Source: a virus. From it: DNA of 64,000 bases. How positions within the stretch are numbered: position 1 is the first letter of the stretch; every line of letters begins with the position of its first letter. Shown here piece after piece: positions 1,142 through 43,785 of this stretch. A model generated the notes under the pieces. The model was not told the origin of the DNA. It worked only from the letters and a program-made list of their open reading frames with translations, and ran no database searches. The stretch covers positions 1 to 64,000 of the IMG/VR virus record IMGVR_UViG_3300047090_000102. One strand, given 5' to 3'. The position numbers and the translations under genes are program-made.

Positions 1142-1145
1142 CAGA

Positions 1146-1516: not shown

Positions 1517-1696
1517 CTAGCGCAGAGTCGTTAATCTGCCGCAGCGTTTGCAGGTCGTTTCGCCGATGTACAGAGTACGCCCGACGAAGTGTAAAACGAT
1601 AGTGCCATGATCCTCGATACGCGGGACCACTGCTACTTTCATGTCCTCGCGCAGTATCGGGTCGTGACCTAACAGCCAGCAGAGGAATCCGTTCAT
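1517..1696 (-). CDS. small zinc-ribbon protein (59 aa)
   Basis: Below the track cutoff. My translation gives MNGFLCWLLGHDP...TCKRCGRLTTLR. The ATG overlaps the stop of 1693..2193 (ATGA). Confidence 0.45.
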   Translation of the reverse strand: MNGFLCWLLGHDPILREDMKVAVVPRIEDHGTIVLHFVGRTLYIGETTCKRCGRLTTLR

Positions 1697-2193
1697 ACGT
1701 CTCCCGCCCGGCGCAGCGCCTCGTCAGCGATGTAAGCAAGGATCTCTTCGACTGAACCGCCGCGCTGTTTGATGCCGTAGCGGACAAGCAGATCGACAAT
1801 GTTTTGTGAGAAACTGCTAGAACGGAAGGACGCCACTACGTCCCGCAGCAGGGGTGCTGCCGCGATGAGGTGGATGTTGCACTGAGCCACACTCTCGGCG
1901 ATCATGAACCCGCCGTAATAGTCGATATTCTCTGAGCCGCTCAGCGCGCCAACTGGCAGAACTTCGGCGACCACAGCACCACGACCATGGTTGTTGGAGC
2001 CTTTGCCTGGATGCCATGGGCCCGGCGTCGATCTTGGTTTGACGTCCGGCTGCGGCAGCAGGTTCTTTTTAAGCCACTTTAAAGCCTCGGCAGAACGCGA
2101 CCCAGAGAATTCTATCTGCTCCAGCGCACACTCCACGCTCCAAAACTCTTCTGGTAACGGCGCGTCTTTGTTTGGTTCGTTATTTTCTGGCAT
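1693..2193 (-). CDS. Ead/Ea22-like phage protein
   Basis: TPGPW motif followed by ...GGFMIAESVAQCNIHLIAAAPLLRDVV. It has the same architecture as 10227..10607. Start chosen at MPENN (AAGGAGA 7 nt upstream). Confidence 0.55.
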   Translation of the reverse strand: MPENNEPNKDAPLPEEFWSVECALEQIEFSGSRSAEALKWLKKNLLPQPDVKPRSTPGPWHPGKGSNNHGRGAVVAEVLPVGALSGSENIDYYGGFMIAESVAQCNIHLIAAAPLLRDVVASFRSSSFSQNIVDLLVRYGIKQRGGSVEEILAYIADEALRRAGDV

Positions 2194-2509: not shown

Positions 2510-2788
2510 TCACGCGAAATCAATTAGCGTTCCAGCGACTTCCTCGGCGAGTTGGAGAACGCGCTCCAACGTTGGGCCGTGAACAACATTGAAGCCAACC
2601 GGTGTGCTTGGATACCAGTGAAGACTCCAGAGACTGTCCGTGCGAATGCACTCTGCTTTGTCCTCTGGCGTCATGTCCGAGTAGTATCCTTGGCTGTCCT
2701 CGGCGAACTCCTGGGCTATGGTTTCATAGTTGTCTTTGTAATCGTTGTGCGTCAACATCAGACTGCACTTGTGCGCAGGGAATTTCAT
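2510..2788 (-). CDS. hypothetical protein
   Basis: ORF 2510..2857 trimmed to ATG 2788, which overlaps the stop of the ATPase gene (ATGA). Confidence 0.55.
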   Translation of the reverse strand: MKFPAHKCSLMLTHNDYKDNYETIAQEFAEDSQGYYSDMTPEDKAECIRTDSLWSLHWYPSTPVGFNVVHGPTLERVLQLAEEVAGTLIDFA

Positions 2789-4104: not shown

Positions 4105-4491
4105 TCACCACGCAGCGTTTCTGTCATTTTCCGTGGCCCAGTACGCTTCCATTTCCGCTTTGAAGTCGAACTTGTAATCAATCGGACCGTACTCTGCCCA
4201 ATCGTCTTTGCTCTGAATTTTAGCTTGAACTATTCCGGCCAGAATGCAGCAAGGACAGTTCCCCGCTAACTTCCGCAGATCGGCCAGCCCGTAATCAGTC
4301 TTGTCATACGTGACACAGGCTTTCAGTTCTTCGATGGGTCGCTGCGGGTCTTCGATGCCGTACTTGTGCAGATTGCAGACTCTCGCCGGATTGCCGACAC
4401 ACCGTGCCTCGTGCGCTTCCATCGAAGACTTGCGGTAGCCGATCTTCTTGCAGAAGTCACAGCCGTACCGGATTACATGTCGTGATCGCAT
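4105..4491 (-). CDS. Cys-rich hypothetical protein
   Basis: ORF track. Multiple CxxC pairs (CDFC, CPCC). Confidence 0.55.
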   Translation of the reverse strand: MRSRHVIRYGCDFCKKIGYRKSSMEAHEARCVGNPARVCNLHKYGIEDPQRPIEELKACVTYDKTDYGLADLRKLAGNCPCCILAGIVQAKIQSKDDWAEYGPIDYKFDFKAEMEAYWATENDRNAAW

Positions 4492-27200: not shown

Positions 27201-30200
27201 GATGATTCTGGTAGCAAAGCTTGTGCCGTACTTGGCGTACTCCTTGCCAGCAATACGGATGTTGGCGCGAACATTGTACTTTTCGGCTATCTTGTCGAAC
27301 CACCTGCCGGCGCCACCCGGGGCCGTGAGTGCCGCTCCGCCGTTGGCATCGTCTGCGCGTCCACCGCCCAGAATGGTGACAAGACGCCCGCCAGGAGCCA
27401 GACGCTGCAATGCGGAATCTACGTGATTGAATCCATAGACGTTGCGGTTTTTGACCGCCTGCCCTTCTGCGCCTTTTAATGCGCCAGCGGAAAACGGCGG
27501 GTTCATGATGATCACTGTCGGCTGGACAGAACTCTTGAGCAGGGAGTTGATGATCTCGCCGTCGTGGGAAGTGATGTTATCGAACCCAACGTGCTTGAGC
27601 ATCGCCTGTCTGCGCGTCGAGATCTCGTTAACGTGAACCTCGGCGCCAACCGCTTTGGCGAATATTGCCAGACCACCGTTACCGCCGGATGGCTCCAGAA
27701 CCACGTCATCGGGTTTTATGCCAGCGACTTTGGCCACGGTGTAGGCCTCGGTTGGCGGAGTCGAGAACTGCTGGCCCTTCAGTTGCTCATCTGTGCGCGT
27801 GCTCTGCGTTGGCAGACGGTTCATGAGGTTCTCGCGCAACATCGCCAGACCTTCGATCGCTGGCATGCCCATCAGGTTTTCGCCGGCGTCGAGCAGGTAT
27901 TTGTTGACACCTGCCTCCATGGCGTCGGTCGCGTCTTTGGGTGTCCACTCGCCCGAAACCCGCGAGGATCCAAAGTGCTCGGCAGCCAAGCGCTCGAACT
28001 GCGGCATATTTCCGAGGGATTCTCCAGTTATGAGCTTCTTATAGACTGCGTCTGCCAGTTTAGCGGCAGGGGTTGCCTCTGGCTCTTTATCGACCGGAGT
28101 GACTTCGCTCTTGAGTGCCCAGCCCTCTATCCGCTCATGAGTTTTGGGGTCTTGTAGGCGAACCCTGTTTCCCTGCTCGAAACCTACTTCGTACTGCTTT
28201 CCGCGATATTCTACCAGATCACCAATTCTGTAAGTTAGCGGGCCGGGAGGTTGAGGCTCATATCCTGGCAATGGCTGCGCGGCGTATCCCTTCCGGCGAA
28301 TCTGTTCATCCCTGATTTTTTGCAGTTGTTTATTCAACGCTGGAGTTGCGCCGCCGTATGTTCCGCCTGTAGTCTTGTTTGCCTCTAGTGCCTTTTCGAG
28401 TTGGGTTACGCGCTCGGCCAGTGTCTGATCTGAAGCCTCACGTATTTCTGCTGGCTCTGATACACGAGTTTGAGGGCGCGCTTCGTAGCTTCCTTCTTCT
28501 GTTGGAACAACGTCGGCTTTCTTGATTGTAAATTTCGGCTCTGCCTTAGTCGCCTGCTTGAGTTCGTGTACTTCCGGCGCCGTCAGTGGCTTTGCTTCCG
28601 CCTCACGGTTTGGCGCTTCATCGGATGGGTGGACTTCCCACTGATCAACACCAGACCACCGGGACCACAAGTCCTGACCCCATGCTTTGGCCGCTTCTTC
28701 TGTGGGGAAGCGTAGAGCGTTGTAGGCCCAGTTGGCATCGCCTTTGCCTTTGACGCCGACCTTGAAGCTCTGCTGTGGGCCCGGTGGCGTGGCGGTCTCA
28801 GCGGCCTTGTTGAGCCAATATCCTGGTCCGGTGTTGGCGGCAATATTCTCGCCGAAATCTTGGAAGGTAAGGGGTTCGTGGTCTGGCTTATCGAGATATT
28901 CCGAGTAAGCCTTTTTCATCTCATCGAGAGTCGGTATTCTTCCACCCTGGTTTTTGCCGCGCTTTTCGAATGTTGGCTGGAGTACGTGCTTCAGTTGCTC
29001 CTGGTACCACTTATCGTCATATCCACTTCCGATACCACTAAGCCATTGGCTTCCTTCCGAACTAGTCTCTTTCTTATTGGCCTGCGACCTATCATCCATC
29101 CATTTGTTGGTAGCGTCGGTCTCGATCTGGAAACTGTTTATTTTACGTTGAGCATCCGCGATCGCCTTTTCGCGACTTTCGTTCATCCTTGAAATTGAAT
29201 AGCCGTCCTGGTCGTTTACCTGCCAGAGCTTTCCACTCTTGCCGGCTGAATACTCAGTGACAGTCCAGCCTTTCGGTAAATCGGGCGCTTCATCCGCGCG
29301 GAACTTAGCGATCTCCTGCTTGTCTGGCATGGTCGCGTGGTTACGCACACGCTCGCCTTTGATCCGGTTGCCGTCCTTGTCGACGGCTGCTACGTCTACA
29401 TTCCATCCGTTCTTTGGCCAATTGGCTCCAGGTTCAGGTGGATGGAACGCAATGACTTCGTCCCTCTGGCCGCCGTATCCATTGACGATACGGCCGGGCT
29501 TGAAGAACCGCGGCAGCTCTTCATCACTCAAATAGTTTGGACTGGTCTTCGCTGGCGGCGTCTTTTTGGCTGGGGCGGCCGCGGGAGTGGCAGGTGCGCC
29601 TTCCAGGATTGCCAGCCTCTCTGCCTTGCCTTCTGCGGACAGGTACGGCGTGTTGCGCACGACCTGCGTCATTTTGACACGCTGCTCTGGCGTCATCTTG
29701 TCGAAGTTGACGCGCCACTGGTCAGTTATGAGATCAGACTTTACCTCGGTCGGGGCTCGCTCGCCTTTGGTGTCGATGACGAACGTGCGGCCATCGCGGC
29801 GAATTACTTTGTCTCTCGATGGATCGAAGTCTGATATCTGTTGGGCATCCAGCTTCGGTCCACCGCGGCTTTGAGGCGGAAGCTTCAGCAGTTTGGCGTC
29901 CCTCTTGGCCTCTATCTCCGCGAGCCTCTTCTTGAGATCTTCGTACTCGCGGCTGCCTGGGCCGGGCTGACTAGGCTTTGTAGTTGCCGCCGCTTGAGGT
30001 TCAGGTGCTTTCTCTTCCTCCTGTGCCTTCCACTCTTTCACGTCTTCCCGGTGTCCGATCTTCTGCATAAACATGGAATCGCCGAGATACCCGGGCGTGG
30101 CGCTCAGATCGTTTTCATCGACACCATATAACTCGAGTCCGTCCTGGCCGCCACCTACGATCTGGTTGACAACAAACCGTTGCCGCTTATCCCCGTATCC

Positions 30201-33200
30201 AGTATTGATCGTTTCGAGCACATCGCCGACGCCGACATCCATCGCTTTGAGTTTTCCGTTCTTGTCCCACTCTGCTTGGAGTTCAGCTTTACGCTCACTG
30301 GCCTCTTTCTCCGCGTCGTCTGCACGCTGCTTTTCCGCTGCCTTCTTGGCCTCCTCGCGCCGCTTGATCTCCGGATCGTTCTTCACGGTCCAGTTCTGAT
30401 CGGCCGGGTAGGTCTTGCCAACGGATGAGGTGCTTCCAATCAGAGACGCGGAGCCGGTAACGCGCACACGCAGCTCGCCCTTGCGGTTCGTCTCGACTTT
30501 TCCGTTGATGTACGCGATCGATCCGCCGAAGCCTGGGACTGCCTGGTAGACCTCGTCGCCATCCTTGGATTTCATGCGGCCATCGGCCCATGTGTCAGTA
30601 GCAGCCGCGCCAAGAAATTGCTTTATCTTGGCATCAAACTTTTGTTTGCCATTCTGCTGTAGCAGCTTAATGGTGCCATCTAGGGTCCGCTGCTCGGTGC
30701 TGTGTTGATGGATTTCAGTGAAGAGACGCGCACCGGTGGTTATCTCATAGGAAGACCATCCCTGTTTGTCGTGTTTTGCGATACTTCCGCGCGGCGGCAC
30801 GACGGCGATACGGTATTCCTCGAATCCAGGCAAGAGGTATTCGGTTCCCTTGAGGTGGAGTTTTTCGCCACCATGGAGAGGATTAGTGAACTCCACTCCA
30901 CGCTTGAGAACCAATGGCTGTGCAACCTGCGGTGGGTTATCGCGCTTGAATGTTGGAACCTCCGGAGACTTGGCAGAAGGGGCCGGTTTAGCGATTGCGC
31001 CTGTAGCCCTATCAACAATTTCCCCGATTTCCTGCCTGATTTGGTGCAGTAATACCGCTTCATGTCCGGGGATTTTCTTTCGTCCAGCAATCAAATCACG
31101 TTCGGCGGCGCGCAGAGCTTCGAGTTTTACGCCCTCTTCCGAGTCTGCTGGTATGCGGGCCGGGCTACGCTTCTCCTGCGCTTTTTGGGCGGCGCGAACA
31201 GGCTCGGCTGCTCCAACTCCCTGGCCAGTTGAACCTGATCCCTGACCTTGGCCGGGAGTCTCTGGAGTACGAGTTTGAGCTTGTCCTGCATCTGTGGATA
31301 AACCTGTTGAAATTGTACCACCAAGCGGTATCGTCTCCTGGCTCCCGTCCTTCTTTGATACGACGATATGGTCTACTGGGACATTTTGGCCTTCAAGTTG
31401 CCTTCCGCCTTTGTATTGTGCGGCGACCTCTGGCTTTACGTATCCAATCGTCAAATGCGGGCGATAGGAGTCGAACGTGTCTTTGTGGAAGCTACCTGCG
31501 CCTTCTACAGCCTTACGCAGCGCCAGCAACTCAGGAGTGCTCTCCAGTGGCGCAATAACCGGTACAGCGCCGTCAGAGTGCTCGCTGGCAGGGAATGTAT
31601 CGGTCGGCCCAATAGGGACCTCGAACGGGGCGATCTTTGACGCCGCTTCTTTGATCTTCTCGACCGCTGCCGGACTGTCATCCTTCAGGCCATACCGCAG
31701 GGTCAAATGGGGGTGATCCTCCCGGCCCTTTGGATTCCCGCCGAAGTCAGTCGGCATCAGGTGCTCGTCTGGGATGGACGCCGCGGCTGCCGCGTGAGCC
31801 TGACCGAGTGCGCTCTCTGGCGCGATATTGATCTGAGTCGAGCCTTTCTTGAACTCCTGCTCTTCTGTCCCGGTACGCTCGCGGAACTGCTGGACCGCTG
31901 CTTCGTGGAATCGTGCTGCCTCATCCCAGTACTTCTTGCGCTCTGCTGACCCTTCAGGAAACTCCCGGCCCGAGGTGTACAGCCGGTGTGTTTGGTCTGT
32001 GATTGCCTGTATCTCAGGGATTACGATCTGGATTTCAGCACTCAAGCCTGATGGCATCTGAGCCTGAACATTAGCACTTGCGTATCCTGCCTTGTTTTCA
32101 CGCGGTTGCAGGAAGTTGTCTTCGACTCCAAGGACGTTGTACCGCTGCTTCAGCGCGGCGATGATCTGGTCTTTGGCTTCGACCGTGTCCGCTACGATCT
32201 GGCTGGCCAAGTAGTCGCCAATGGTGTTCGGCGGCTTGTCGTCTTCTGTCTTCTCGCCCAGGCGTTCCAAGTTCTTTTGCGGTCTGAGTCGGCCGCCGTG
32301 GGCTTCGTCAAAGTGGGCTCCTTGGACGCTCGCCGCGATCTCAGAGAGCCCGGCTGCCAGTTCTGGCGCCGCTTCTGCCGCGAGCCGTTCGTTCTCAATC
32401 TCGCTACCTGACGGCTGGACTATCTGACGGCCGGCTTCGTGGTCGTAGTCTCCAACCTTGGCTACGGCTACTTCTGAAGGCTCCTTGGCTGGCTGCGCGA
32501 GTTTCGCGGCATCGGCTGGAGATTCGTCTTTTACTTCTACCCGGGGAACCTGGCCCGGTGCAAGTTGGGCCTCCTGGTGTACCTTCTGTACCGCCGGTGA
32601 ATCGGTGGTCATTGCTCGTCCCATAGCAGGGACATCGCCAGCGTTCGGTAACTGTGGTGCTCCAGTCTGACCTTTGGTGCGTTCTGCCTTTATCCGGGTA
32701 GCTTCGGCTGAGATAGCGGGCGAGTAGTCGGCGTTCGCCGGTAGTCCCAGGTTCTTCTTGGCCTGCATCCAGTCGTCGGTTTCGTTCTGCGCCACGGTGG
32801 CGGATGTTGCTGCGGTCTCTGGTTTGGCGGGTGGTTCGCCTATCCATGTAGGCGGACGTGAGGGATTGGCCGCGTCTCTCTTGATGAGTCCATCCTGTTC
32901 CATTCTATCAATGAGGTGTGTGGCCTCTGCGTAACCAATATTGAGGCGGCGCTGCAAGAGAGATGTTGATGCCTTGCCGAATTCAGCCGAAGCCTGCTTT
33001 GCCTGTTCGTATTTGTCGCTCACTGCCGGTGATTCCGGCGTAGGTGTCGATGGTTTCGGCTTGCCGCGGTCAATCACCCGCTGTACAGCCGCTGCAGGCT
33101 TTGTTGCAGGCGTTGCAGGTTTATCTGCCGCTTTGGCCGCTGCCTCCTGCGCCTTGTTGTGCCCCTGGACGGCGTCATTTATCAACGTCTGCGCGAGCTT

Positions 33201-34928
33201 CTCTGCCTGCTCTGGCGTTTTCGCTATGTGCAGGGTTCCATCCGGACCAACAAACCTCCCGCCAGACTGCTGGATCGCATTGATTAGGTAGTCGTGCGCG
33301 TGAAGGATCAGTTGCGGGCGCTGTGCGGGCGAGGCTGCGGCGATCTTGGTCGCCAAATCGTTCAGATGATCAGGGTGAAGCTCGGCGGGATGAGCCTGCG
33401 GCGTGGATCCAGTTGCTGGAGGTTGCGCGGCGGCGGTTGCTGCCTCTGTCTGCTGCTTACCAAAGGTATCCACCTGCCGGTTGATCATGTCCAGTGCCAA
33501 CTTCGCGGCTGTCTTAAGGTCGGTCGCGGTCTCTACGTGCCCGGTAGTTGGATCGGTGAATGTTCCCATCGGGCGGGCCAGTATCCACTTTGTCAGGTTC
33601 CAGTATCCTTCTTTCATTAGCGCTTCACGCGCCATTGGATCCGGAGCCTTGGCGATTGCTCTCGCGACAGTGTCAAGTACTTCTGGAGTAAGCGACGGCG
33701 GGCCTGGCGGCGGTGGAGGAGGAGCCTTTGGCACTTCTCCAGTTCCTTGAAGATAATGCATCATCGATTGCGTTGCTTCATCGATGACCGGCGCACTACG
33801 TGGCGGAACACTTACCTCAAATGGACCTACCTTGCCTCGAAATGTCGTTCCTTCTGCCGTTTGCGCTACTCCGGCAGCAACCTTGCCACCAAACACTGAA
33901 CCACCAGAAAATTTCCCCCTTGGCGTTTCTACAGATCCAGTCTTGAGGCCAGTTATGACTCCAAGAGCGGATGGCAGGAAGAATGCCGCTGACCGTATAA
34001 GCTCTTCGTCTTCTGGCGAAACATGACCATGAACTGCCGAACCAGTCCCTTCGCTAGCCAACATTCCTGCTCCATACCCAGCAGCAACCTTGAGCGGCGA
34101 AGTAAGCGCACCAGCAACCGCCAGCGGTTCCATGAGTTCACCAGATCCCTGTAGAATCTCAGCGGCACCCAATGAACGCTGCCTGCGCCTTTTCTCCTCA
34201 TCTTCAACAGCAGATCCCTTTGCAAAATTAGTGAGCATCTTAGCCTCGTCTTCGGGCGTAAGGTGCATATCTCCGGTAGGAAGGCTATGGGGATGCTCCG
34301 GCCTGCTCGTTGATTCTTCTGGCACATCTCGATAATGTGCTGGCCCTATAGTATTAGGGTCATCAGGAACCATCGTTTGTTTATGCACAAACAGCGGAGC
34401 ATGTGTCTGCGCTTGGTTCTCGCTGATGCGGCTTATGCCAGTCGCCAGCGGCTCAGCTCCAACCCATGCATCAAGGACAGGAATACGATCAGCCTCCGGA
34501 ACAAGAGGTTCCTGATAAGGTGTTCCGGTTTTTGCATGATACAAAATTGGTTGATCGAGTTGAGGGTCATGTGGCTTCCCTGTTGGTTCTGCTACGGGCT
34601 GCCCAGACGCTGCACGAGCTGCACCTGTTGGCGTCTGCGTGCGATACGCGCCGGGATAAGCTGTGGGGCCACGCGGTACATCCACGTGAGAAGGCATCGA
34701 CTCAAATAGGCTGGGTTGTTTCGGACGATAGCCGACGGACCCTGGCCCAAGAGGATTGCCGAGACGGTCAAACTCTTGGTCAGCCTGAGTTTTAGTGAGT
34801 GATGGAGTGGAAGGCGCGGAGCCCTCTAATTCAAAGCCGGGAGGGAGCGTTAGAGCGGGAGAGGGAGAGGAATCTTGGCCCTCAAGTTCAAAGCCTGGAG
34901 GGAGAGCAACTGCGTTTTTGTCTGCCAT
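18234..34928 (-). CDS. giant polyvalent internal-virion-slot protein (5,564 aa) with FtsK-gamma-like, RelA/SpoT-like, 2H phosphoesterase, N6-adenine methyltransferase and intein-interrupted Sbno/SNF2-like helicase modules
   Basis: Uninterrupted 16,695-nt ORF with an ATG start. Catalytic motifs were read directly (see the domain features). It occupies the T7 gp16-equivalent position between internal-virion-like genes and the terminase. Confidence 0.85.
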   Translation of the reverse strand: MADKNAVALPPGFELEGQDSSPSPALTLPPGFELEGSAPSTPSLTKTQADQEFDRLGNPLGPGSVGYRPKQPSLFESMPSHVDVPRGPTAYPGAYRTQTPTGAARAASGQPVAEPTGKPHDPQLDQPILYHAKTGTPYQEPLVPEADRIPVLDAWVGAEPLATGISRISENQAQTHAPLFVHKQTMVPDDPNTIGPAHYRDVPEESTSRPEHPHSLPTGDMHLTPEDEAKMLTNFAKGSAVEDEEKRRRQRSLGAAEILQGSGELMEPLAVAGALTSPLKVAAGYGAGMLASEGTGSAVHGHVSPEDEELIRSAAFFLPSALGVITGLKTGSVETPRGKFSGGSVFGGKVAAGVAQTAEGTTFRGKVGPFEVSVPPRSAPVIDEATQSMMHYLQGTGEVPKAPPPPPPGPPSLTPEVLDTVARAIAKAPDPMAREALMKEGYWNLTKWILARPMGTFTDPTTGHVETATDLKTAAKLALDMINRQVDTFGKQQTEAATAAAQPPATGSTPQAHPAELHPDHLNDLATKIAAASPAQRPQLILHAHDYLINAIQQSGGRFVGPDGTLHIAKTPEQAEKLAQTLINDAVQGHNKAQEAAAKAADKPATPATKPAAAVQRVIDRGKPKPSTPTPESPAVSDKYEQAKQASAEFGKASTSLLQRRLNIGYAEATHLIDRMEQDGLIKRDAANPSRPPTWIGEPPAKPETAATSATVAQNETDDWMQAKKNLGLPANADYSPAISAEATRIKAERTKGQTGAPQLPNAGDVPAMGRAMTTDSPAVQKVHQEAQLAPGQVPRVEVKDESPADAAKLAQPAKEPSEVAVAKVGDYDHEAGRQIVQPSGSEIENERLAAEAAPELAAGLSEIAASVQGAHFDEAHGGRLRPQKNLERLGEKTEDDKPPNTIGDYLASQIVADTVEAKDQIIAALKQRYNVLGVEDNFLQPRENKAGYASANVQAQMPSGLSAEIQIVIPEIQAITDQTHRLYTSGREFPEGSAERKKYWDEAARFHEAAVQQFRERTGTEEQEFKKGSTQINIAPESALGQAHAAAAASIPDEHLMPTDFGGNPKGREDHPHLTLRYGLKDDSPAAVEKIKEAASKIAPFEVPIGPTDTFPASEHSDGAVPVIAPLESTPELLALRKAVEGAGSFHKDTFDSYRPHLTIGYVKPEVAAQYKGGRQLEGQNVPVDHIVVSKKDGSQETIPLGGTISTGLSTDAGQAQTRTPETPGQGQGSGSTGQGVGAAEPVRAAQKAQEKRSPARIPADSEEGVKLEALRAAERDLIAGRKKIPGHEAVLLHQIRQEIGEIVDRATGAIAKPAPSAKSPEVPTFKRDNPPQVAQPLVLKRGVEFTNPLHGGEKLHLKGTEYLLPGFEEYRIAVVPPRGSIAKHDKQGWSSYEITTGARLFTEIHQHSTEQRTLDGTIKLLQQNGKQKFDAKIKQFLGAAATDTWADGRMKSKDGDEVYQAVPGFGGSIAYINGKVETNRKGELRVRVTGSASLIGSTSSVGKTYPADQNWTVKNDPEIKRREEAKKAAEKQRADDAEKEASERKAELQAEWDKNGKLKAMDVGVGDVLETINTGYGDKRQRFVVNQIVGGGQDGLELYGVDENDLSATPGYLGDSMFMQKIGHREDVKEWKAQEEEKAPEPQAAATTKPSQPGPGSREYEDLKKRLAEIEAKRDAKLLKLPPQSRGGPKLDAQQISDFDPSRDKVIRRDGRTFVIDTKGERAPTEVKSDLITDQWRVNFDKMTPEQRVKMTQVVRNTPYLSAEGKAERLAILEGAPATPAAAPAKKTPPAKTSPNYLSDEELPRFFKPGRIVNGYGGQRDEVIAFHPPEPGANWPKNGWNVDVAAVDKDGNRIKGERVRNHATMPDKQEIAKFRADEAPDLPKGWTVTEYSAGKSGKLWQVNDQDGYSISRMNESREKAIADAQRKINSFQIETDATNKWMDDRSQANKKETSSEGSQWLSGIGSGYDDKWYQEQLKHVLQPTFEKRGKNQGGRIPTLDEMKKAYSEYLDKPDHEPLTFQDFGENIAANTGPGYWLNKAAETATPPGPQQSFKVGVKGKGDANWAYNALRFPTEEAAKAWGQDLWSRWSGVDQWEVHPSDEAPNREAEAKPLTAPEVHELKQATKAEPKFTIKKADVVPTEEGSYEARPQTRVSEPAEIREASDQTLAERVTQLEKALEANKTTGGTYGGATPALNKQLQKIRDEQIRRKGYAAQPLPGYEPQPPGPLTYRIGDLVEYRGKQYEVGFEQGNRVRLQDPKTHERIEGWALKSEVTPVDKEPEATPAAKLADAVYKKLITGESLGNMPQFERLAAEHFGSSRVSGEWTPKDATDAMEAGVNKYLLDAGENLMGMPAIEGLAMLRENLMNRLPTQSTRTDEQLKGQQFSTPPTEAYTVAKVAGIKPDDVVLEPSGGNGGLAIFAKAVGAEVHVNEISTRRQAMLKHVGFDNITSHDGEIINSLLKSSVQPTVIIMNPPFSAGALKGAEGQAVKNRNVYGFNHVDSALQRLAPGGRLVTILGGGRADDANGGAALTAPGGAGRWFDKIAEKYNVRANIRIAGKEYAKYGTSFATRIIVIDKDGSTPSRMGSLGRKRITDEIQELQGKPSWRLAYLKREANRGDLKNWDSTVQGNVSTLEQAYTLLENVAETRPVPTRTARTAGTGQEIAATGVGESKAPGTAGSGQPLRGERGTGAEIQPTGGPERVPGQPGGVAAGVGNQPVPLQQSQVQPATGPRTPVQTAGGAGGSTPAVNAERPSTVSAAEKLREQIRKAAGERLGKKIEGQPQPGSPEYEALKQKLAQLEAKKPRAIQPATPKPKPAERFTADNREEALKRLRARRGEVQPEGEEPPAYSLEEGGEKELTPEDINDMVDVGGFHFQQGIIQFDPWSKKMIADLGEWARPYLEVVHQEVSSLLGKPIEGKPKAPPATEAEKQGLQLEREAREQQAETEDTSAFVSYRPTLKGSTHPGPIVESKSMATVSLPEITYQPRLPQSVVTEGRISAVQMEPIALAGQQNQIILPSGHRAAAASSDGTGVGKGREAAGVLFDNWRQGRRRLVWVSEKWDLMQDAIRDLDGIGATTLSKTIKPFMKQPATTPIDHEGIMFSTYALLRSEDKKGNKRIAQLEKWIRGNDEGEGAHVIFDECVPAGTKIETPSGPVPIEQLHIGDSVWGFNHDTGEIEATPVLYLFRRETVNDFTIVHETPMTGNHPVWTANRGYVPSDELACDDTVALLDFVPDALQPHLCFVPAAICSEAEYYSQYQGDDKTSFLYEEVLGTVADEQSGIESQKAYNSRRKAEVVCNSSRSPQAPGRSRENAAASLRPNESITQSSSQGRSARSFTQERIRSSQWRERNAAVLAAANAGREAGVANGVRGNDQHTSRDWTADSLQTGYFATVTEVSDRGGRRGTPSDKGETGRSAQRGVPPICRLDCNEIQEPGDTGFPGNRRVCRTVHNIETATRNYFAGGLLVHNCQALKNAVARSQQEVSLTGDTVKKFLERNPKLRTFFLSATPATDVTNLGYMDRLGIWGAGTPFPGGFEEFNAKISAGGMSAMEMIARELKSQGKYVSRTLSYKGVQYSEIEHTVNDEQKDLYRSAVKAWKLVSQRVEDTIQNTVNGGSRAKSRFMSLFYASQQRFFNVLLTTLKIPTAVEQANKALGDGKSVVISLVNTNEAAQNREKLKFKGLEDTDEIPDYDFGPAEMLMDLVQEHYPTQQWIDDVDSEGKPIKVLATQKDESGRDIPVVNPQAVAERDALIKELKQNLQMPANPLDILVESLGGHSKVAEITGRKERFDPTTSKFVSRGDPGVARDKINKVEEGNFNAGKKRVAILSTAGGTGISLHAGKDMKNQQKRLHITLQVGWSADRAMQMLGRTHRSNQVQPPEYALLKTNMGGESRFISTIARRLGSLEALSKGQTKTNEGTEMMDKVNFETDQGKAATRAFYQSLLKNTEVPETATKESKGKNLTGMQILEDLKVLKTGQGGAPTVPDADMVNVTRLLNRLLALDPDVQNGAYNYFYDIFEAAVKDAIENGTLDTGVKQMPGDTFTVKEQRVIARDPKTGAETFYYPVDADVRTERLSVAQLEKKMKQDSKLNPRILRNGDGKLAFVVDAKDIIRADGHREPASYVVYPDYGKWEKVANHKLEIGKWGHGADQKPAYIPGFEEISEWSKKTIDKAKSSVQSAEWSLKSTKESRERYPQYYTEESIKEKEEALERAQKSLADSEAATKDPIAWGKEEWGKQYEAAPAHNTTPNHLIGGAVMHWWNAIHDSTQRLEVYTVVDSKSGQRVVGVAIPKEQIAQLLAKITGNKSAVNSSQIIKDVLENNTPYRLEGGTRIVRGRVGRDRVVQFIPSGHGMGEQLKSMGVVYEKGLQPIYYLPMSGTERFNAANILDKVLKTYPAEVETKGGEEEEPAYSLQSPSGWESTGENAPEVTEIKAVYRPSVGSIPPTVELSSAAFDMARSAIGAPHGIVGANLSVTQAARTAQNLRNFAPMATDAKVRQDMESLASAFDQAAKSPQAKTKGVNFFTGARDEHIFQEEVFHGGVQRELGAGKIAEHLPEDAYPRLLNHPVAKKLLGTALKHSYYQAYPDYMKVAEMAAKIAADENTLSPEDAADWFTEYYNELERHHGPAKIAEIMNGMFDRAKELHELSIVRLQTNRAALSVRPGEGTRGLTAAGEGSAAGPTGIAPPGNRGRDQENAGGEGQKPTVEPPAYSLKEDERKGERGFANLNVPAVLSHATPVIERGAGALVRPLVEAIAKAAAPVRDLIQSHVLPSKWQARAERKENLAKSRNLETNLLDLDRKFEGSAITAAKTLQEVGKDTTVADRLAVDRHIDSLLVPQAGPTSLSPEQQRILDQYVTPLREANQALYEELREANIPADFDPTYLHRVVRDRQNQLQRATEGSRGSGRGNVLSKTAASLKQRVMYSLDDGEGTRRVVSFKDGQVTGWDGGQPTPMSGEAPSGFTVGKRFIDDNRGEWSITQATKDEIEENTGLTYFRDPVATTMADFLQLTRAVEAKRFLDAWKSSPAFASVAMLPEKGLYAPRGWKEIANLPQFRGYQFEPRTAEVLQRFADKLNKENAPSILGKLADVAQTSILLNPLLHVLNMADFAVVSRGAVANANVLGLGNVTSTMAKAIKSAVTKDADYIRALDAGAHLMSHKQYVSDLNKHFVELMTGMMENNKPFKEKMRDYMGLRQGDDPVQAIRRASHAAAFVSNDILYMQSVHEKIADGMSMEAAVRETNKIFPDYQVPTRPLDSKLLGDIMRTRWLTWFNGYHLGRFKAYKNIFEGAFKSGVDDQARGHALSMLAMLGLLVAVGYGAYDQFMKKVTNEPNAKSPRFGLSKLPAEMIETAKGERSFSSLAQSQFTPSTLIRAAHDVIENRDYKNDFVYNPEGSAVTKAKQIGEHMGKSSIGPLMQYEQYERDTEPGAGKREALRLLLGTKFPKSESMSPAEILMHRFAGQAMPPRTPEEQQEYTDNKARIASGHLTQADVKKILFKMRTNEFKRMLPRFTLGQIKKVMAESTPAERVVIMPIYIQKEIQTLKDPVKRSEALRDGVFQ
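24510..25493 (-). mobile_element. intein (328 aa) inserted in helicase motif II
   Basis: Begins CVPAGTKIETPSG (Cys1 codon 25491..25493). TGNHPVW block B. Ends ...VHNIETATRNYFAGGLLVHN, followed by the +1 Cys (24507..24509). Confidence 0.85.
24518..25222 (-). CDS. DUF559/Vsr-like (PD-(D/E)XK) homing-endonuclease-like ORF, nested in the +1 frame inside the intein
   Basis: 234-codon ORF with TTG at 25222 and the first ATG at 25213. N-terminal zinc-finger-like CALCQQPF...RFCTKKC. Core LRQRMLAEKLGWPTEF...YKLDIS..SLKLAIEVDGEGHQ...ADRRKEVFLQSVGWTVMRFKNQEI. Its stop lies 5 nt before the intein's terminal Asn codon. Confidence 0.6.
   Translation of the reverse strand: MYLMPFNLICALCQQPFVAKRSTTHSIRGTIKRRFCTKKCSAQWRMNNQELKAKRRITPEGKQKWSAILQEVRKRPDVQEKMQQHLYGPTNPLRSPAVRAVALEASRKKGFAHLNGGNGTPLSLRQRMLAEKLGWPTEFVVTTNTHRGTGLPTHYKLDISQPSLKLAIEVDGEGHQAIKVKLADRRKEVFLQSVGWTVMRFKNQEILDSLETVESAVQCTISRLQPETTSLAVS
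26648..27031 (-). CDS. candidate overprinted +1-frame ORF (127 aa) inside a linker of the giant ORF
   Basis: ATG start. The helical, non-repetitive product (...LVWENLKLLAQQAVDNHYEESEALAQKFNLQVDLNEFLANLEES...) uses CTG/GAG/AAC/CAG/TTC codons. The giant frame here is a G/P/T/A linker with atypical GGA/CCT/CAA/CGA codons. Confidence 0.35.
   Translation of the reverse strand: MLVHSNRRILSLRMLQKQGQSRLEPPAQQALGKKSPQLVWENLKLLAQQAVDNHYEESEALAQKFNLQVDLNEFLANLEESQPESAINQFHYSNPKFNLQQDLVHQCKPLEVLEALLRQSTLNDRLQ
27249..27941 (-). other. N6-adenine DNA methyltransferase domain (within the giant ORF)
   Basis: QQFSTPP, SAM motif VLEPSGGNGG (27672..27701) and the catalytic NPPF (27492..27503). Confidence 0.8.
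31329..31811 (-). other. 2H phosphoesterase (LigT/Acb1-type fold) domain (within the giant ORF)
   Basis: Two HxT motifs 84 residues apart. HPHLTLRYG has HLTL at 31698..31709. RPHLTIGYV has HLTI at 31446..31457. Confidence 0.7.
31899..32351 (-). other. RelA/SpoT (RSH)-like nucleotidyltransferase motif region (within the giant ORF)
   Basis: RLRPQKNLERLGEK...IGDYLASQIV...NKAGYASANVQAQMPSGLSAEIQIVIPEIQAITDQTHRLY resembles the R.K...eK / D..g.Ri / GY.s.H / EiQirT / H..YK layout. Eye-level match only. Confidence 0.4.
32829..33011 (-). other. FtsK-gamma-like winged-helix domain (within the giant ORF)
   Basis: KASTSLLQRRLNIGYAEATHLIDRMEQDGLIKRD matches the S.S.LQRrl.IGYnRA..li..mE..GiV pattern of FtsK gamma. 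Confidence 0.6.
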
Positions 34929-39242: not shown

Positions 39243-41876
39243 CTATATATTTGGACGGCTCCCAGAAATTTTCCTGGCGTAAATGGCCGCCCATTGGACG
39301 TCTGCCGAGGCATCTGGCGTTCTATTGTTGTGAATTCTCAGACGGAATCGTTCGTTCTGTCCGCTTGCTCCGCACGAATAACCAACAGGGGAAGTGGTGG
39401 CATTCCATGTTCGAGACAGCTGCCGAAACAGTTTAGGGTCCCTCCCGCCTGATTCAGGACTTACGCTGCGTCCAAACAGTACTTCCACGAAAATATCTCC
39501 AGTGGTAGTACCGTTAGTCTGTACGCCGCCTAACTGACTTACGGCCATGAGTTCCTCGTGTGTAGCGGTTTCTACTACGAAATCGATACCACCGCCGTTG
39601 TCGTTATAGACGTAGGGTACGATCACATTCACGATGCCGTCGAAGTTGGAAGTGCCGAACATGAGCTGAGTATTCAGAATGCTTGCGTCCAACAATGGGG
39701 CCGGATTCACTAATGTGCGCTCGACTCGGAATATTACATTCGCCGCGATGTCATCAATATTCCACTTCCTGGCGATAGGAGAGGCCACAAGTTTACCGCT
39801 AAAACTCATGTGGAACGGTGCTGCAAACTCTTCGTTCAGGGTAGGATCATGCGATTGGCGATAGTTGCATTTCAGCACCACATTGTTCTGTGTGCTTAAA
39901 TCCAATGGGACTGCGATACGAATCTCTTTTTCCTCGTCGTCAATGTGGACAACAATGTTTTGCGCGAACTTCCAGTTGATGCGTGCCCATAGTTTGCTGA
40001 TTTCTCGTGTGATCGGATACGGCTGGTTGCCTTGATAAATATAGAGCCCGCTACGGTGGGCATAAGCCATAAATCTGGTGCAGACATCGACCGCCCGCGG
40101 GCCACATGGACCTGACCCTATCCAGCGTTCCTGCACTGCCCATGTTGAGGGATCGGAACCTCCTGGACTCATAACATAGCCGGCGCGTTCTTTGAAGAGA
40201 TACACCTGGCCGCGCCACTCGCGCGCAGTAATCGCCCTCATGCCATTACCCTGAGCGACGATTACTAATCCGGTGTCGCCAAATACTCCTTCTGGATTGT
40301 TCTGCAAAGATACGTACCAGCCATCGGGAATGATGTCGGCTTGATAGAGTAACCTGCCGACTGAACGCACAAACTGGATGTCGGAACAACCGGGAAGTTG
40401 AATAAGGCGAAAATTGTCAGTGACGTTTGCATTTCCGATAAGCGCCTGCAGATAAGTATCAGTGAAGTTGAAAGTTGCTGTCGTGGTGACGTTATCGTTG
40501 ATTACCGTCGTGGTGATCGCCACACCGTTGGATACATCATTTGCCGGGATATAGAAGTATGGCCCAGCAGAGGATGCGCCTGCAGGCGTAAGCGCTACGA
40601 TCCGTTGTGCAGTATGGGGAGTAGGGCCGAGCGGAATTTTGAGGGCAAATAATTGTGCAGCAGTCGCAGTTCCGCCAGAAATATTCAACTGGACCACGCT
40701 AGGCGATGTCATGCCAGAGATATAGCCATTGCGATTCACGAAAAGCACGACCGCCCAACGTCTTCCTGCAGGAACGTTCCCTGTAGTGCTAATGATCAGG
40801 GCACTGTTCGTAGCCAAAGGCTGTGCTGATACTGGAGTGCTATTCACTGACACAAAAGTTCCCGCAACAAGAGCGAACGGGCCGCCAGGATATTTATTGA
40901 ACGCTGTTAAGGCTGGCTGTGCTGCGCCGGTTGCAACATCTACCACATATATGTTCCAGTTAGTCGGTGGATTCGTCAGACCTGTAACCCATGCGCGCAA
41001 GCCATTGGGTGTCTTCACGGTAATGTTCACCAGATCATTGAGTGCCGTGTTTTTAACTGCCAGCGCGACTAAAGGGTCTGATTCACCATTTGCGTTAAGC
41101 AATGTAATAGCGACCCATACGTCTCGGTTGGCGGGGAATGCCCCGGCACCGGCAACTACGGTTGCGGCAAGCGAAAAGCCAGAGGTCGGAACATCGGGTG
41201 AGACTGTGGCAAAAACTCCGCCTGCTGCTGTCAAACCAGTCGGTGCAGGAACTGCAGTGCTGAAAATTAACGTGTTCTCAGTCCAGACAACGGTACCGTC
41301 ATTCGTTGTAGCACTGTCGCCTACATTCCATGCTGGTTCTATATTCCCGCTTTTACCAGCAGTCGTACACCGGAAAACTTTGCCAAGCGCAGGAGTACTT
41401 GCCGAGCATACACATTCGCCGACAACATAGTTCGTTGCAGCCTTCCATGGGTCGCCGACCGGACGAAGACTCAAGGGATCAAGATTCCCAGTTGTAAGGT
41501 TATAGACAGCAGGAACGGACGTAGAGCGGATCAGATTGGTTAGCGCAAGATACGCACCAATAAATGCCGGCGCGATTTGCATTGAACCTGGCACCAAAGA
41601 TACAGTCGGGTTTGATACAGAAACCAGTGTACCGCTTCCGGCCGGAGACTCGATCCAGAGGTTGCCTTGTGAGTCAAATATCATCGGCACCTGCTGGAGC
41701 GTCTGAACATTAACGAGAGACGCTCCGCCGGTTATCGGGTTGAGTTTGCCAGTGCTGATCCCCCACTGCCTGGAGAGGCCGTCGCGAGTACGCACGCTGC
41801 TCCCGTGATAGCGTACATTTCGCATGATTGGAGACAGACCAACCGGAATTTTCGTTACATCCTCTTCGTCAAACAT
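39243..41876 (-). CDS. large tail/nozzle-like structural protein (T7 gp12-position)
   Basis: 877 aa, beta-rich composition. Assignment is by position and size only. Confidence 0.6.
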   Translation of the reverse strand: MFDEEDVTKIPVGLSPIMRNVRYHGSSVRTRDGLSRQWGISTGKLNPITGGASLVNVQTLQQVPMIFDSQGNLWIESPAGSGTLVSVSNPTVSLVPGSMQIAPAFIGAYLALTNLIRSTSVPAVYNLTTGNLDPLSLRPVGDPWKAATNYVVGECVCSASTPALGKVFRCTTAGKSGNIEPAWNVGDSATTNDGTVVWTENTLIFSTAVPAPTGLTAAGGVFATVSPDVPTSGFSLAATVVAGAGAFPANRDVWVAITLLNANGESDPLVALAVKNTALNDLVNITVKTPNGLRAWVTGLTNPPTNWNIYVVDVATGAAQPALTAFNKYPGGPFALVAGTFVSVNSTPVSAQPLATNSALIISTTGNVPAGRRWAVVLFVNRNGYISGMTSPSVVQLNISGGTATAAQLFALKIPLGPTPHTAQRIVALTPAGASSAGPYFYIPANDVSNGVAITTTVINDNVTTTATFNFTDTYLQALIGNANVTDNFRLIQLPGCSDIQFVRSVGRLLYQADIIPDGWYVSLQNNPEGVFGDTGLVIVAQGNGMRAITAREWRGQVYLFKERAGYVMSPGGSDPSTWAVQERWIGSGPCGPRAVDVCTRFMAYAHRSGLYIYQGNQPYPITREISKLWARINWKFAQNIVVHIDDEEKEIRIAVPLDLSTQNNVVLKCNYRQSHDPTLNEEFAAPFHMSFSGKLVASPIARKWNIDDIAANVIFRVERTLVNPAPLLDASILNTQLMFGTSNFDGIVNVIVPYVYNDNGGGIDFVVETATHEELMAVSQLGGVQTNGTTTGDIFVEVLFGRSVSPESGGRDPKLFRQLSRTWNATTSPVGYSCGASGQNERFRLRIHNNRTPDASADVQWAAIYARKISGSRPNI

Positions 41877-41962
41877 GGAACCGAAGATTTCGAACGGCCT
41901 AGGAGTGAATCCTTCAAAATTGATGGGGCACCGGCCTTTTTAAAAGCGGAGGGAAAGAAGTT

Positions 41963-42071
41963 GCTGGTGTCTTGCCATTAGACGACTCTCCGCCTGGGGC
42001 CATACACCATAAGAGCGGCTCATGGGAGAGGGCTTGCGCAGAGAACCAGGACTCGAACCTGGATTTCCAGC
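41963..42071 (-). ncRNA. circularly permuted tRNA-like element (3' half, 45-nt linker, 5' half)
   Basis: Minus strand 42071->42038 reads GCTGG AAAT CCAGG TTCGAGT CCTGG TTCTCTG C. Minus strand 41992->41963 reads CGGAGAG TC GTCT AATGGCA AGAC A CCAGC. The acceptor stem pairs 7/7 (2 G-U). The anticodon stem pairs 5/5. U8, A14, G18G19, A21, G53:C61 and the T-loop are canonical. No canonical anticodon loop is present. Confidence 0.5.
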
Positions 42072-42108
42072 CACGTTCATTATGCTATCGCACACTGGGC
42101 GAATCGGT

Positions 42109-42504
42109 CTACGTGCCAGTCTTCCAGGTCAACGAGATGACGAGTTGCATGCCGCCGACACCGTTGAAGTTGGCAAGAGTAATAGCCTGGCTGGCATAAC
42201 TGGCTCCAGTAAATTCCGCTCCGCCACCTGTGTAGAACTTCATCTTAAAGGTAGAGAGCGTTGCCGCCGTAATGATACCGGTGTAAACGCCACCCATTTC
42301 CTCAAGATAGATACCAGGAGGAATCAAAGGCACACGGCTTGGTATCGGGTGAGCGATGAAGTTTGGATTCGCCGGACTCGTTGCGCTGGCGAAGTTTATG
42401 ATATCTCCCCCAACGGTGTAGAGGCCACTCGGCAGGACGCTTATATAAGTGGTTGTCTGAGTACCGCCCTGCTGGACATCAATAACGGAAAGAGCTAGAG
42501 GCAT
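42109..42504 (-). CDS. structural-module hypothetical protein
   Basis: ORF track. Confidence 0.6.
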   Translation of the reverse strand: MPLALSVIDVQQGGTQTTTYISVLPSGLYTVGGDIINFASATSPANPNFIAHPIPSRVPLIPPGIYLEEMGGVYTGIITAATLSTFKMKFYTGGGAEFTGASYASQAITLANFNGVGGMQLVISLTWKTGT

Positions 42505-42526: not shown

Positions 42527-43207
42527 TTAGCGCGGATTTACTGAACGGCGACGTCGACCGGCATGCATCCTTCCAACGCGCCTTATCTTTTTCTGGTTCT
42601 GCCGTGACAGGAACTGCGCCACGTCATCAAATGAATCGTCTGCTTTCTTGCTGTATGCCTGAATCCATCCTTGGTTCCCGCGAACCACGCCGATCAGCGC
42701 AGCGACTCCGTACGCAAGCACGACACCGAAGTTGTTTGTGATCCGCACCACATCTTGCTCGTTTGCCAGCGGCGCGAACATGAATTCACCAGTAACGCGA
42801 ATGTCCATTGCGAGAGTAGACGGCGTTAAGAAGATTACGCCTGAGCGCCACTCCCAGTCTGTGATCAACTGCCCGGGCGTCACGTCGCTAACTTTGTCCA
42901 CGAACTCTGCTTCCTGATAACTGACCCTAGATAGTCCATTCTGTTTGTATTCAAGGATGCGCGGCTGAAACATGAGTTCCAAGGGCTTACCAGATACTTG
43001 GAATGAACTCAGGTCCGTCGTCTGGGCAGGGACATTGATAAGTTCGACCTGTTTGCGTTCGAAGGAGCCATCGGCGGCAAGCAGTTTGTTGGCGCTTTCT
43101 TCGTAAATTTGCGCGACAAGGGGATTTAGGAAAGCATCGGACGTGTAAGTTCCGTCCGCGTCGTCACAGAGTCCTCGGATTCTAGCTTTAAGGTCGGAGT
43201 AAAACAT
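42527..43207 (-). CDS. head-tail adaptor / tail-tube-A-position protein (candidate)
   Basis: 226 aa. Assignment is positional only. Confidence 0.55.
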   Translation of the reverse strand: MFYSDLKARIRGLCDDADGTYTSDAFLNPLVAQIYEESANKLLAADGSFERKQVELINVPAQTTDLSSFQVSGKPLELMFQPRILEYKQNGLSRVSYQEAEFVDKVSDVTPGQLITDWEWRSGVIFLTPSTLAMDIRVTGEFMFAPLANEQDVVRITNNFGVVLAYGVAALIGVVRGNQGWIQAYSKKADDSFDDVAQFLSRQNQKKIRRVGRMHAGRRRRSVNPR

Positions 43208-43785
43208 TGTGTCCAGGTTTTATTAGTACAGATTCTCCAAATTTGTCCGCGTGTAATTCCAAATACTGCGGTTATTTCTTTGCGGGTTTTACCTTCTTGC
43301 ACCATTGCCTTTATTTTGGCGATGTCCTCTGATTTTAGTTTGCACTTCGGATTTTCAGTAGCACGCCAATGTGTACGGCGACCTTTTGCCGCACAGTCAC
43401 GCATATTTTCAATGTGCGTCCCAGTCCAGAGATGATCTGGATTTACACACGGAGGATTGTCGCAATGATGAAGAACCCCATGTCCATCTGGGATCGGTCC
43501 TTTAGTAAGTATCCATGCGACTCTTTGAGCTTGCTGCGTAGTCCATTTGCCGGAAATTTTAGTGCGGAATGTGCCATATCCATCACGCTTCTTGCAGCAA
43601 CCAGTCCAAACCCAGCAGGGCCCAAGTTCAGGCCGATGCGCAGGCACCGGCCCATCCTTGTTTACCTTTTTCCAGAATAACTCGCAGAGTGGCCTTCTAC
43701 GTTTTTCTGCCGTTGCTGCTGCGGCAGCAGATGCTTTAATAGCGTGAGTGCGCCGTTCTTCTGGAGTTTCTCCCATGCCATGCAA
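43126..43785 (-). CDS. free-standing HNH homing endonuclease with C-terminal HTH
   Basis: PCWVWTGCC..RDGYG...AQRVAW......GHGVLHHCDNPPCVNPDHLWTGTHIENM plus KTRKEITAVFGITRGQIWRI. TTG at 43785 and ATG at 43776. Confidence 0.7.
   Translation of the reverse strand: MHGMGETPEERRTHAIKASAAAAATAEKRRRPLCELFWKKVNKDGPVPAHRPELGPCWVWTGCCKKRDGYGTFRTKISGKWTTQQAQRVAWILTKGPIPDGHGVLHHCDNPPCVNPDHLWTGTHIENMRDCAAKGRRTHWRATENPKCKLKSEDIAKIKAMVQEGKTRKEITAVFGITRGQIWRICTNKTWTQCFTPTLKLESEDSVTTRTELTRPMLS

Follow-up and report, generated by a model that had tools for sequence, protein, structure and literature searches.

The closest described relatives of the element analysed here are the YrlA RNAs, Y RNAs whose tRNA-like domain has been likened by its authors to a circularly permuted tRNA and runs in the order anticodon-type stem, variable region, T stem-loop, closed acceptor stem-loop and D stem-loop (bioRxiv 10.1101/312249). 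YrlA genes lie at most 4 kb from rsr, the orthologue of Ro60, in >250 bacteria and 22 phages, and they carry the motif GNCGAA(N)G near the 5' end; the YrlA of M. smegmatis, whose acceptor stem is 7 bp long, is a substrate of RNase P and has CCA added to it (PMC4201824). Until now, partnership with Ro60 has been what defines a Y RNA that has a tRNA-like domain. We describe an element with the same order in an uncultured soil phage, the virus record IMGVR_UViG_3300047090_000102 of IMG/VR, lying in the 232-nt gap between two late genes on the minus strand of its first 64,000 nucleotides, the stretch referred to throughout as the window. Judged by its sequence, the element is a YrlA-type permuted tRNA-like module that is an orphan as to Ro60. 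An initial annotation of this DNA, made from the letters alone, had taken the topology to be new in a phage. It is not, being that of the YrlA tRNA-like domain in the 22 phages already mentioned (PMC4201824; bioRxiv 10.1101/312249), in phage Bxz1 and in some 20 IMG/VR contigs considered later in the text.

On the coding (minus) strand, the element reads tRNA 3' half, linker, tRNA 5' half. Base assignment divides it into the following parts.

42071..42038, minus strand: the whole tRNA 3' half, which aligns to positions 1-34 of covariance model R1 (described later)
42071-42067, minus strand: 3' strand of the anticodon stem, GCTGG
42066-42063, minus strand: variable loop, AAAT
42062-42046, minus strand: T arm, CCAGG-TTCGAGT-CCTGG
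42045-42039, minus strand: 3' strand of the acceptor stem, TTCTCTG
42038, minus strand: discriminator base, C73
42037-41993, minus strand: linker of 45 nt, which closes the acceptor stem and is folded as a hairpin of its own
41992..41963, minus strand: the whole tRNA 5' half, placed by base assignment and by the rejoining tests
41992-41986, minus strand: 5' strand of the acceptor stem, CGGAGAG
41985-41984, minus strand: U8 and C9
41983-41969, minus strand: D arm, GTCT-AATGGCA-AGAC
41968, minus strand: A26
41967-41963, minus strand: 5' strand of the anticodon stem, CCAGC

All 21 stem pairs are formed (acceptor stem 7/7, two of them G-U; anticodon stem 5/5; T stem 5/5; D stem 4/4), and the conserved tRNA bases U8, A14, G18G19, A21, G53:C61, T54-C56 and A58 are kept together with the A15:U48 Levitt pair. 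No CCA is encoded after C73, and the last base of the linker, a G at position -1 (41993), is able to pair with C73. When the RNA is constrained to the permuted cloverleaf, its fold lies only 1-2 kcal/mol off the minimum free energy; the acceptor stem is then 7-8 bp long with 4 and 5 unpaired linker bases beside it, and the linker hairpin (CCAUGAG/CUUAUGG inside GCC/GGC) is stacked upon it. The z-score of the whole-region fold is just -0.7. As tRNA-like folds are not exceptional by energy alone, the constrained fold and the detector tests were relied on instead. In this model, a 7-bp acceptor stem set on a T arm, a discriminator base and unpaired bases on both sides would give RNase P and RNase Z the features of a substrate. 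The 3' 28 nt of the linker (41994..42021, minus strand) resemble the tRNA 5' half, GAGCCGCTCTTATGGTGTATGGCCCCAG as against GAGTCGTCTAATGGCAAGACACCAG, with 19/28 identities in a local alignment that 97/5000 shuffles score equally well. This stretch, the 3' two-thirds of the linker, may be a second 5' half that has decayed, and it hints at an old duplication.

In the native order of the window, ARAGORN finds no tRNA and no tmRNA (transfer-messenger RNA), and Rfam gives no match, even at E <= 10 over 41700-42300. Once the 5' half is joined through a loop to the 3' half, a tRNA is called by ARAGORN with 32/32 loops, namely 28 joins made from flanking bases and four artificial loops. Rejoining with the same 34 + 45 + 30 nt geometry was repeated throughout the window on both strands, at 127,782 positions in all, and yielded a tRNA call solely at the element, within 1-2 nt. 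The permuted tRNA-like element is therefore real and not a product of chance. The eight 7-nt registers in which the flanks could be joined offer neither U33 nor a purine at position 37, all giving A33 and a pyrimidine at 37. Beyond the 5-bp anticodon stem, the flanks pair no better than shuffled sequence (43-73% of shuffles are as stable), and no bulge-helix-bulge-type or other significant helix is formed by them. In these respects, the initial annotation was accurate: the positions, pairings and conserved bases of the two halves withstand base assignment, rejoining and the chance control, a tRNA detector responds to the rearranged halves, a check that it had proposed, and its statement that no register of the flanks restores U33 holds for all eight registers.

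The source of the element can be recognized. At least 120 loci came out of a metagenome scan for a pattern that combines the D arm and the anticodon stem, and nearly all are ordinary tRNA-Gln(CUG) genes, which in soil take the form TGGGGGG/TGCGGGG-TC-GTCT-AATGGCA-AGAC-G-CCAGC-CTCTGGA-GCTGG-TTAT-CGGGG-TTCGAGT-CCCTG-...-G. The element and the tRNA-Gln(CUG) of phages and bacteria agree, fully or to within one base, in the region from U8 to position 31, in G39-G43 and in the T loop. Against the soil form, the element shows paired changes at 1:72 (U:A to C:G), 4:69 (G:C to A:U) and 50:64 (A:U to C:G); since those at 1:72 and 4:69 span both of the swapped halves, the halves come from one tRNA. On this comparison of sequences, the element is derived from a gene of the tRNA-Gln type. 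It departs from such genes in being permuted and in having wholly lost the anticodon loop, CUCUGGA in tRNA-Gln. The identity elements of GlnRS are U1:A72, G73 and a CUG/UUG anticodon. In their place, the element has C1:G72, C73 and no anticodon loop. Phage tRNA-Gln genes in IMG/VR typically have this very D arm together with A26, and two scans of representative bacterial genomes, one with a 24-mer of T arm plus acceptor and one with a 23-mer of D arm plus stem, gave no match. Tandem pairs are absent from the 120 sampled soil tRNA-Gln(CUG) loci; one viral contig, L244, holds a tandem tRNA-Gln pair. The 120 sampled soil genes, which may or may not be those of the host, have no CCA after the gene, and the RNase Z route is thus compatible with them.

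The surroundings of the element were compared with five related loci. The features concerned are these.

42109..42504, minus strand: upstream late gene of 131 amino acids (aa), from the list of open reading frames (ORFs), with its TAG stop at 42111-42109
41938..42105 (roughly), minus strand: the whole insertion of ~168 nt, from the alignment of the window with its closest relative, L001
41922..41937, minus strand: start region of the downstream gene, with AGG at 41937-41935, GTG at 41931-41929, a CCCC run and ATC at 41924-41922
39243..41924, minus strand: downstream late gene, 877 aa from its first ATG at 41876
43126..43785, minus strand: free-standing homing-endonuclease gene, HNH_3 + HTH_7 by Pfam

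The window is phage-like, its proteins are almost without Pfam or PHROG matches, and in the searches made it matches no phage in INPHARED or IMG/VR. In the five relatives (L001, L002, L003/L004, L125/L126 and L127), the orthologues of the two flanking genes stand just 8-28 nt apart, and none of these loci has a tRNA, the upstream gene being one of 121-131 aa that ends at the same place in L001, L002, L003, L125 and L127. L001, the closest at 72% protein identity, is without the element. In the alignment with L001, the insertion falls between the TAG stop and the AGG...GTG start region, and it consists of a 34-nt 5' flank, the 109-nt tRNA-like core and a 25-nt 3' flank. Both of its sides are collinear with the relatives, and its composition, judged by eye, is not unusual for the phage. 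The element is a lineage-specific insertion, and a recent one. A second copy of the gap sequence is absent from the window and from the relatives; BLAST against INPHARED phages, near and distant, gave trivial T-arm matches only, and IMG/VR searches with both flanking proteins and with exact 21-/26-mers of the element gave nothing. In the related phages, where the initial annotation had proposed to look for covariation, no ordinary tRNA is found at this place and, as the element is absent, there is no orthologous covariation.

The gap does contain the element, but its 232 nt overstate the non-coding stretch, as homology to the N-terminus of the relatives' protein starts at 41924. This protein, which has a weak match to a head-decoration PHROG, has 103 homologues, many or several from Acidobacteria metagenome-assembled genomes. 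Its conserved N-terminus, INFEGFTPRPFEIFGS, reaches 41924, 16 codons upstream of the first ATG, and has no canonical start codon. The in-frame codon at the place where the orthologues start is ATC (41924-41922), whereas the GTG at 41931-41929 aligns with the start in L001 but is out of frame by one base. From this GTG runs the short frame GTG CCC CAT CAA TTT TGA; with one C removed, the gene would start cleanly at GTG. An alternative account of the anomaly is a +1 slip into the frame of the gene at TTT-TGA (41919-41914), as in prfB. The frame of the large gene is also open from an ATG at 42080 through the whole element except for one TAA (41942-41940), and an open frame of this length (46 codons) would arise at random in roughly 10% of cases by our own estimate. 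The homing-endonuclease gene is a second lineage-specific insertion, 1.1 kb upstream of the element, and sits between a 346-aa and a 226-/227-aa gene that adjoin each other in L001. It is regarded as context, and no link to the element is claimed.

The same architecture occurs in other phages. Two limited scans of IMG/VR for the T loop followed by TCGTCTAANGG within 14-70 nt returned mostly tandem tRNAs, together with about 20 elements in the permuted YrlA order. Pairing of the acceptor strands at a fixed offset reached at least 6/7 in 13/20 matches having neither arm in an ARAGORN tRNA as against 3/104 tandem tRNA pairs; the expectation by chance is ~1.3% (own estimate). In five contigs (L129, L152, L172, L201 and L220), the permuted element and a TROVE/Ro60 gene share a strand and lie 86-1436 nt apart, and these are, as far as sequence can classify them, classical phage YrlA loci. 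In another five (L149, L162, L178, L208 and L258), the permuted element lies inside a tRNA array, 16-64 nt from tRNAs. In L132/L139, L165, L219 and L216, neither a TROVE gene nor a tRNA is close by. Two of these orphans are especially close to the element of the window.

3845..3953 of L132, minus strand: orphan permuted element
3805..3913 of L139, minus strand: orphan permuted element

Both are placed between protein genes in the replication module (DNA polymerase, UvsY-like, SSB and UvsX) of an AT-rich phage. Their D arm is identical to that of the window element at 18/18 positions, and the T loop and the 45-nt length of the linker are the same. Their minimum-free-energy fold is the permuted cloverleaf, the linker has an 18-bp hairpin, the outer helices are long, and between L132 and L139 there is a compensatory change, C3:G70 to U3:A70. 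The likeness of these orphans (L132/L139, also L165 and L219) to the window element thus comprises the D arm TCGTCTAATGGCAAGACA, the T loop TTCGAGT, a 4-nt variable loop, a 7-bp acceptor stem, a 45-nt hairpin linker, a position between protein genes of the same strand and the absence of Ro60 or tRNA nearby. L132 and L139 differ from it in encoding G73-CCA, in their long outer helix, in their setting in a replication module and in a linker of unrelated sequence.

Covariance model R1 was built from 11 of the IMG/VR permuted elements, with the window excluded. In a default search of the local region, it aligns to the window element over its full length with all 21 pairs formed and a score of 64.3 bits, within the 54-77 bits of recognized permuted elements (the 11 in training 55.6-77.3; untrained ones 54.0-60.1), although this score arises partly by construction, the training pattern sharing the D arm and T loop with the window element. 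The independent information in it is the closure of the acceptor and anticodon stems. With the filters off, a sub-optimal partial alignment of 23.8 bits makes use of the D-arm-like stretch of the linker. The tandem tRNA-Gln junction scores 45.6 bits and ordinary tandem tRNA junctions 30-50 bits; R1 alone does not define the class, for which closure of both stems and the absence of an ARAGORN tRNA call are also required. All of the permuted elements were missed by ARAGORN, and the window element and most of the others tested were missed by Rfam, exposing a blind spot of both for permuted elements.

Several further tRNA-like loci were noticed. The viral contig L131 has two adjacent R1 matches on the minus strand, 1643..1740 and 1744..1814, with 54 and 58 bits, which may be a pair like YrlA and YrlB. 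In L162, a weak full-length match to the Rfam tRNA model (27 bits) spans 175 nt at 2690..2864 on the minus strand, implying an insert of ~100 nt, and lies just upstream of the permuted element and a tRNA-Thr. L274 (~1116..1200, plus strand) and L282 (~4273..4357, plus strand) hold tRNA-like genes with normal D and T arms and a 10-nt 'anticodon loop' (CCCTC-tgttcgtgtt-GAGGG), neither of which is called by ARAGORN.

Comparison with YrlA itself shows how far the likeness goes. The succession T arm, closed acceptor stem, D arm and anticodon-type closing stem is identical, the tertiary positions of tRNA are kept, the acceptor stem has 7 bp as in M. smegmatis YrlA, and both occur in phages. The Rfam family of YrlA is RF02553, with a gathering score of 69 bits. 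As a positive control, it matches phage Bxz1 beside the Ro-like gene of that phage, with the same structure line as the element; known or likely phage copies of YrlA score 27-43 bits, themselves below the gathering score. Pfam and a TROVE hidden Markov model of our own detect no Ro60/TROVE gene among the ~65 ORFs of the window (64 kb), and the Ro-binding motif GNCGAA(N0-1)G is absent from the 232-nt gap. An extended closing helix of the Y RNA kind was rejected on the pairing of the flanks given earlier in the text. The element thus differs from YrlA in lacking rsr within 64 kb, the motif, the extended helix and an Rfam match; further differences are a 45-nt hairpin in place of the short acceptor loop, a D arm and anticodon stem of tRNA-Gln type, and a place inside a late structural operon rather than beside rsr or in a tRNA array.

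Other known systems resemble the element in part. The permuted tRNA genes of Cyanidioschyzon merolae, green algae and Thermofilum likewise have the 3' half upstream of the 5' half of the same tRNA, with an intervening sequence removed by RNase P and RNase Z. These genes rebuild the anticodon loop through a bulge-helix-bulge, a splicing endonuclease and a circular intermediate; the flanks of the element have no such motif, and a 7-nt loop cannot be rebuilt from them, so that a functional, decoding permuted tRNA is not supported. Two-piece tmRNA, from permuted ssrA genes, also has the acceptor 3' strand upstream of the 5' strand and a mature form in two pieces, but it has neither D stem nor anticodon stem and it has G3:U70 and a tag frame, none of which applies here. 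The tmRNA candidate was rejected: the ARAGORN search for permuted tmRNA and the Rfam tmRNA models are silent, position 3:70 is G:C, the D stem has its full 4 bp, and the three frames read contain nothing like a tag. In tRNA-like processing signals, such as mitochondrial tRNA punctuation, the mascRNA of MALAT1 and the tRNAs of bacterial operons, a tRNA fold within a longer transcript also lets RNase P and RNase Z set the ends. The order is normal in these and a free tRNA-like RNA is released, whereas cleavage of the element would leave its halves on two mRNAs.

The fold, the tRNA ancestry, the status as an insertion and the occurrence of the same architecture in other phages are established. 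The explanation that we favour, tentatively and at slightly less than an even chance, is that a recent insertion of ~168 nt carrying a permuted, tRNA-Gln-derived module, an orphan of the YrlA type, is transcribed in the late polycistronic mRNA and handled by the tRNA enzymes of the host. Lying on the strand of the late operon, the element will be part of the late transcript. Its RNA would take the L-shape of tRNA and be treated as tRNA by host enzymes, RNase P cutting 5' of C1, or of G-1 should pairing of G-1 with C73 move the site, as it does in tRNA-His. After C73, the end would be made by RNase Z, or by trimming plus CCA addition as for M. smegmatis YrlA. These cuts would release the 45-nt linker and break the operon mRNA in two between the genes. 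The product would be an anticodon-less, two-piece tRNA mimic resembling a nicked tRNA, held together by 12 stem pairs (seven in the acceptor stem, five in the anticodon stem) and forming a cap both on the upstream mRNA, at its 3' end, and on the downstream mRNA, at its 5' end. Processing by tRNA enzymes is the likeliest biochemical consequence. Among the roles suggested in the initial annotation, RNase P/RNase Z punctuation, a two-piece tRNA mimic and descent from tandem tRNAs remain live, while a tmRNA does not. Several findings weigh against our explanation. A single genome carries the element and its closest relative does not, so there is neither orthologous covariation nor conservation to draw on. 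The insertion breaks a tight gene junction and leaves the conserved N-terminus of the downstream gene without an in-frame canonical start, damage that looks costly rather than adaptive. No consensus of a sigma-70 promoter or an intrinsic terminator was found at the element, RF02553 gives no match at E <= 10 on 41700-42300, and the R1 score is in part owed to the way in which the model was made. The G-1:C73 pair and the partly paired linker could hinder the RNase P cut or shift it. A wider proposal, which we regard as doubtful, is that Ro60-independent, permuted and anticodon-less tRNA mimics form a broader and uncatalogued phage class of two-piece look-alikes made by RNase P and RNase Z. Their roles could be those of decoys or signals in tRNA conflicts (anticodon nucleases, repair of the RtcR/RtcB type) or of mRNA punctuation, and the window element would be the first seen embedded in the mRNA of structural genes.

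A serious rival, possible though in our judgement unlikely, is that the element is neutral: a recent insertion by illegitimate recombination, or by repair linked to the nearby homing endonuclease, that has no role and has not yet decayed, and that could have come from an array of phage tRNAs, from a gene of the YrlA type or from two tRNA-Gln genes in tandem. Presence in one genome and absence from five relatives fits this well, as do the second lineage-specific insertion 1.1 kb away, the disturbed start region of the downstream gene, the existence of tandem tRNA-Gln pairs in viral contigs (L244) and the likeness of part of the linker to a second 5' half in decay. Yet both breakpoints lie exactly at the ends of the 5-bp anticodon stem and the flanks keep no remnant of the loop, which would not be expected of a piece taken at random from a tandem pair. 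The sampled soil loci furnish no tandem arrangement (0/120), all stems and tertiary positions of the element are intact, and the same closed architecture recurs in other phages. That the element is instead a genuine Y RNA, served by a Ro60/Rsr protein from the host or from the ~38 kb of the contig beyond the window, is improbable. Its topology is identical to that of YrlA (bioRxiv 10.1101/312249), and five IMG/VR elements with the same D arm stand beside TROVE genes; but published YrlA genes are within 4 kb of rsr (PMC4201824), no TROVE domain occurs in the ~65 ORFs of the window, the gap is without the GNCGAA(N)G motif, its flanks pair no better than shuffles, and the Rfam YrlA model is silent.

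An engineered circularly permuted tRNA mimics a nicked tRNA; when it ends in a 2',3'-cyclic phosphate, RtcR binds it and RtcB ligates it (PMC10159003). By analogy with this precedent, the element might serve in tRNA conflict as a decoy or signal for anticodon nucleases, for RtcR/RtcB repair or for similar sensors. The location of YrlA in the repair operon rsr-yrlBA-rtcBA and the orphan copies in several phages speak in the same direction. We nevertheless hold this to be quite improbable: the argument is one of pure analogy, the 2',3'-cyclic phosphate needed by RtcR would be missing unless the element were specifically cleaved, and the window yielded no candidate partner, whether a nuclease, RtcB or RtcR. 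We consider it very improbable, taking the two together, that the sequence is an assembly chimera or that a genuine permuted gene matures here to a decoding tRNA, even though the source is a metagenome contig and such genes are known from Cyanidioschyzon and from an archaeon (PMC3978253). The collinearity of both sides of the insertion with the relatives, and a composition that is not unusual by eye, argue against a chimera. Against a decoding tRNA stand the lack of a joining register with U33, the lack of a flank helix and the statement in the paper on YrlA structure that no bacterial equivalent of the eukaryotic and archaeal tRNA splicing endonuclease has been reported (bioRxiv 10.1101/312249). 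Extremely improbable, lastly, is a translation device, tmRNA-like or like an internal ribosome entry site, that starts the downstream gene. It would account for a conserved N-terminus beginning at ATC with the GTG at 41931-41929 out of frame, and for a frame open from ATG 42080 through the element bar one TAA. A one-base error in the CCCC run, or a start at ATG 41876, is a simpler explanation of the start anomaly; the open frame of 46 codons has the chance probability estimated earlier; G3:C70 replaces G3:U70; ARAGORN and the Rfam tmRNA models are silent; and the three frames read downstream of the 5' half show no tag-like frame.

An intact module without a Ro60 gene, a Ro-binding motif or a neighbouring tRNA points to a tRNA-like domain that is able to act, or to spread, independently, and further orphan copies occur in unrelated phages. 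If processed as in the explanation that we favour, the element would represent tRNA-type punctuation in a bacterial virus that leaves a split tRNA mimic on two mRNAs, and the counterpart in nature of the engineered 'nicked tRNA' with which the sensing of RNA repair has been probed. If it is a mere recent hitch-hiker, it is a record of permuted tRNA-like genes moving between phage genomes.

Two minor observations concern other genes. Proteins with a Cpn10 (GroES) domain are encoded just upstream of capsid-region genes in relatives (L001 350..862, L003 1..348, L125 5206..5940 and L127 5993..6424), with no Cpn10 match among the window ORFs scanned. The initial annotation had also connected the element with a 2H/LigT module in the giant protein of the same operon. 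The module is confirmed, but the giant proteins of L125 and L127 carry it without the element, and a functional tie was rejected. The window protein, of 5564 aa (18234..34928, minus strand), is polyvalent, with FtsK_gamma, the 2H/LigT phosphoesterase and a Strawberry-notch-type helicase (AAA_34 + Helicase_C_4); ~600 aa lie between the halves of the helicase, where a weak Hint_2 match suggests an intein.

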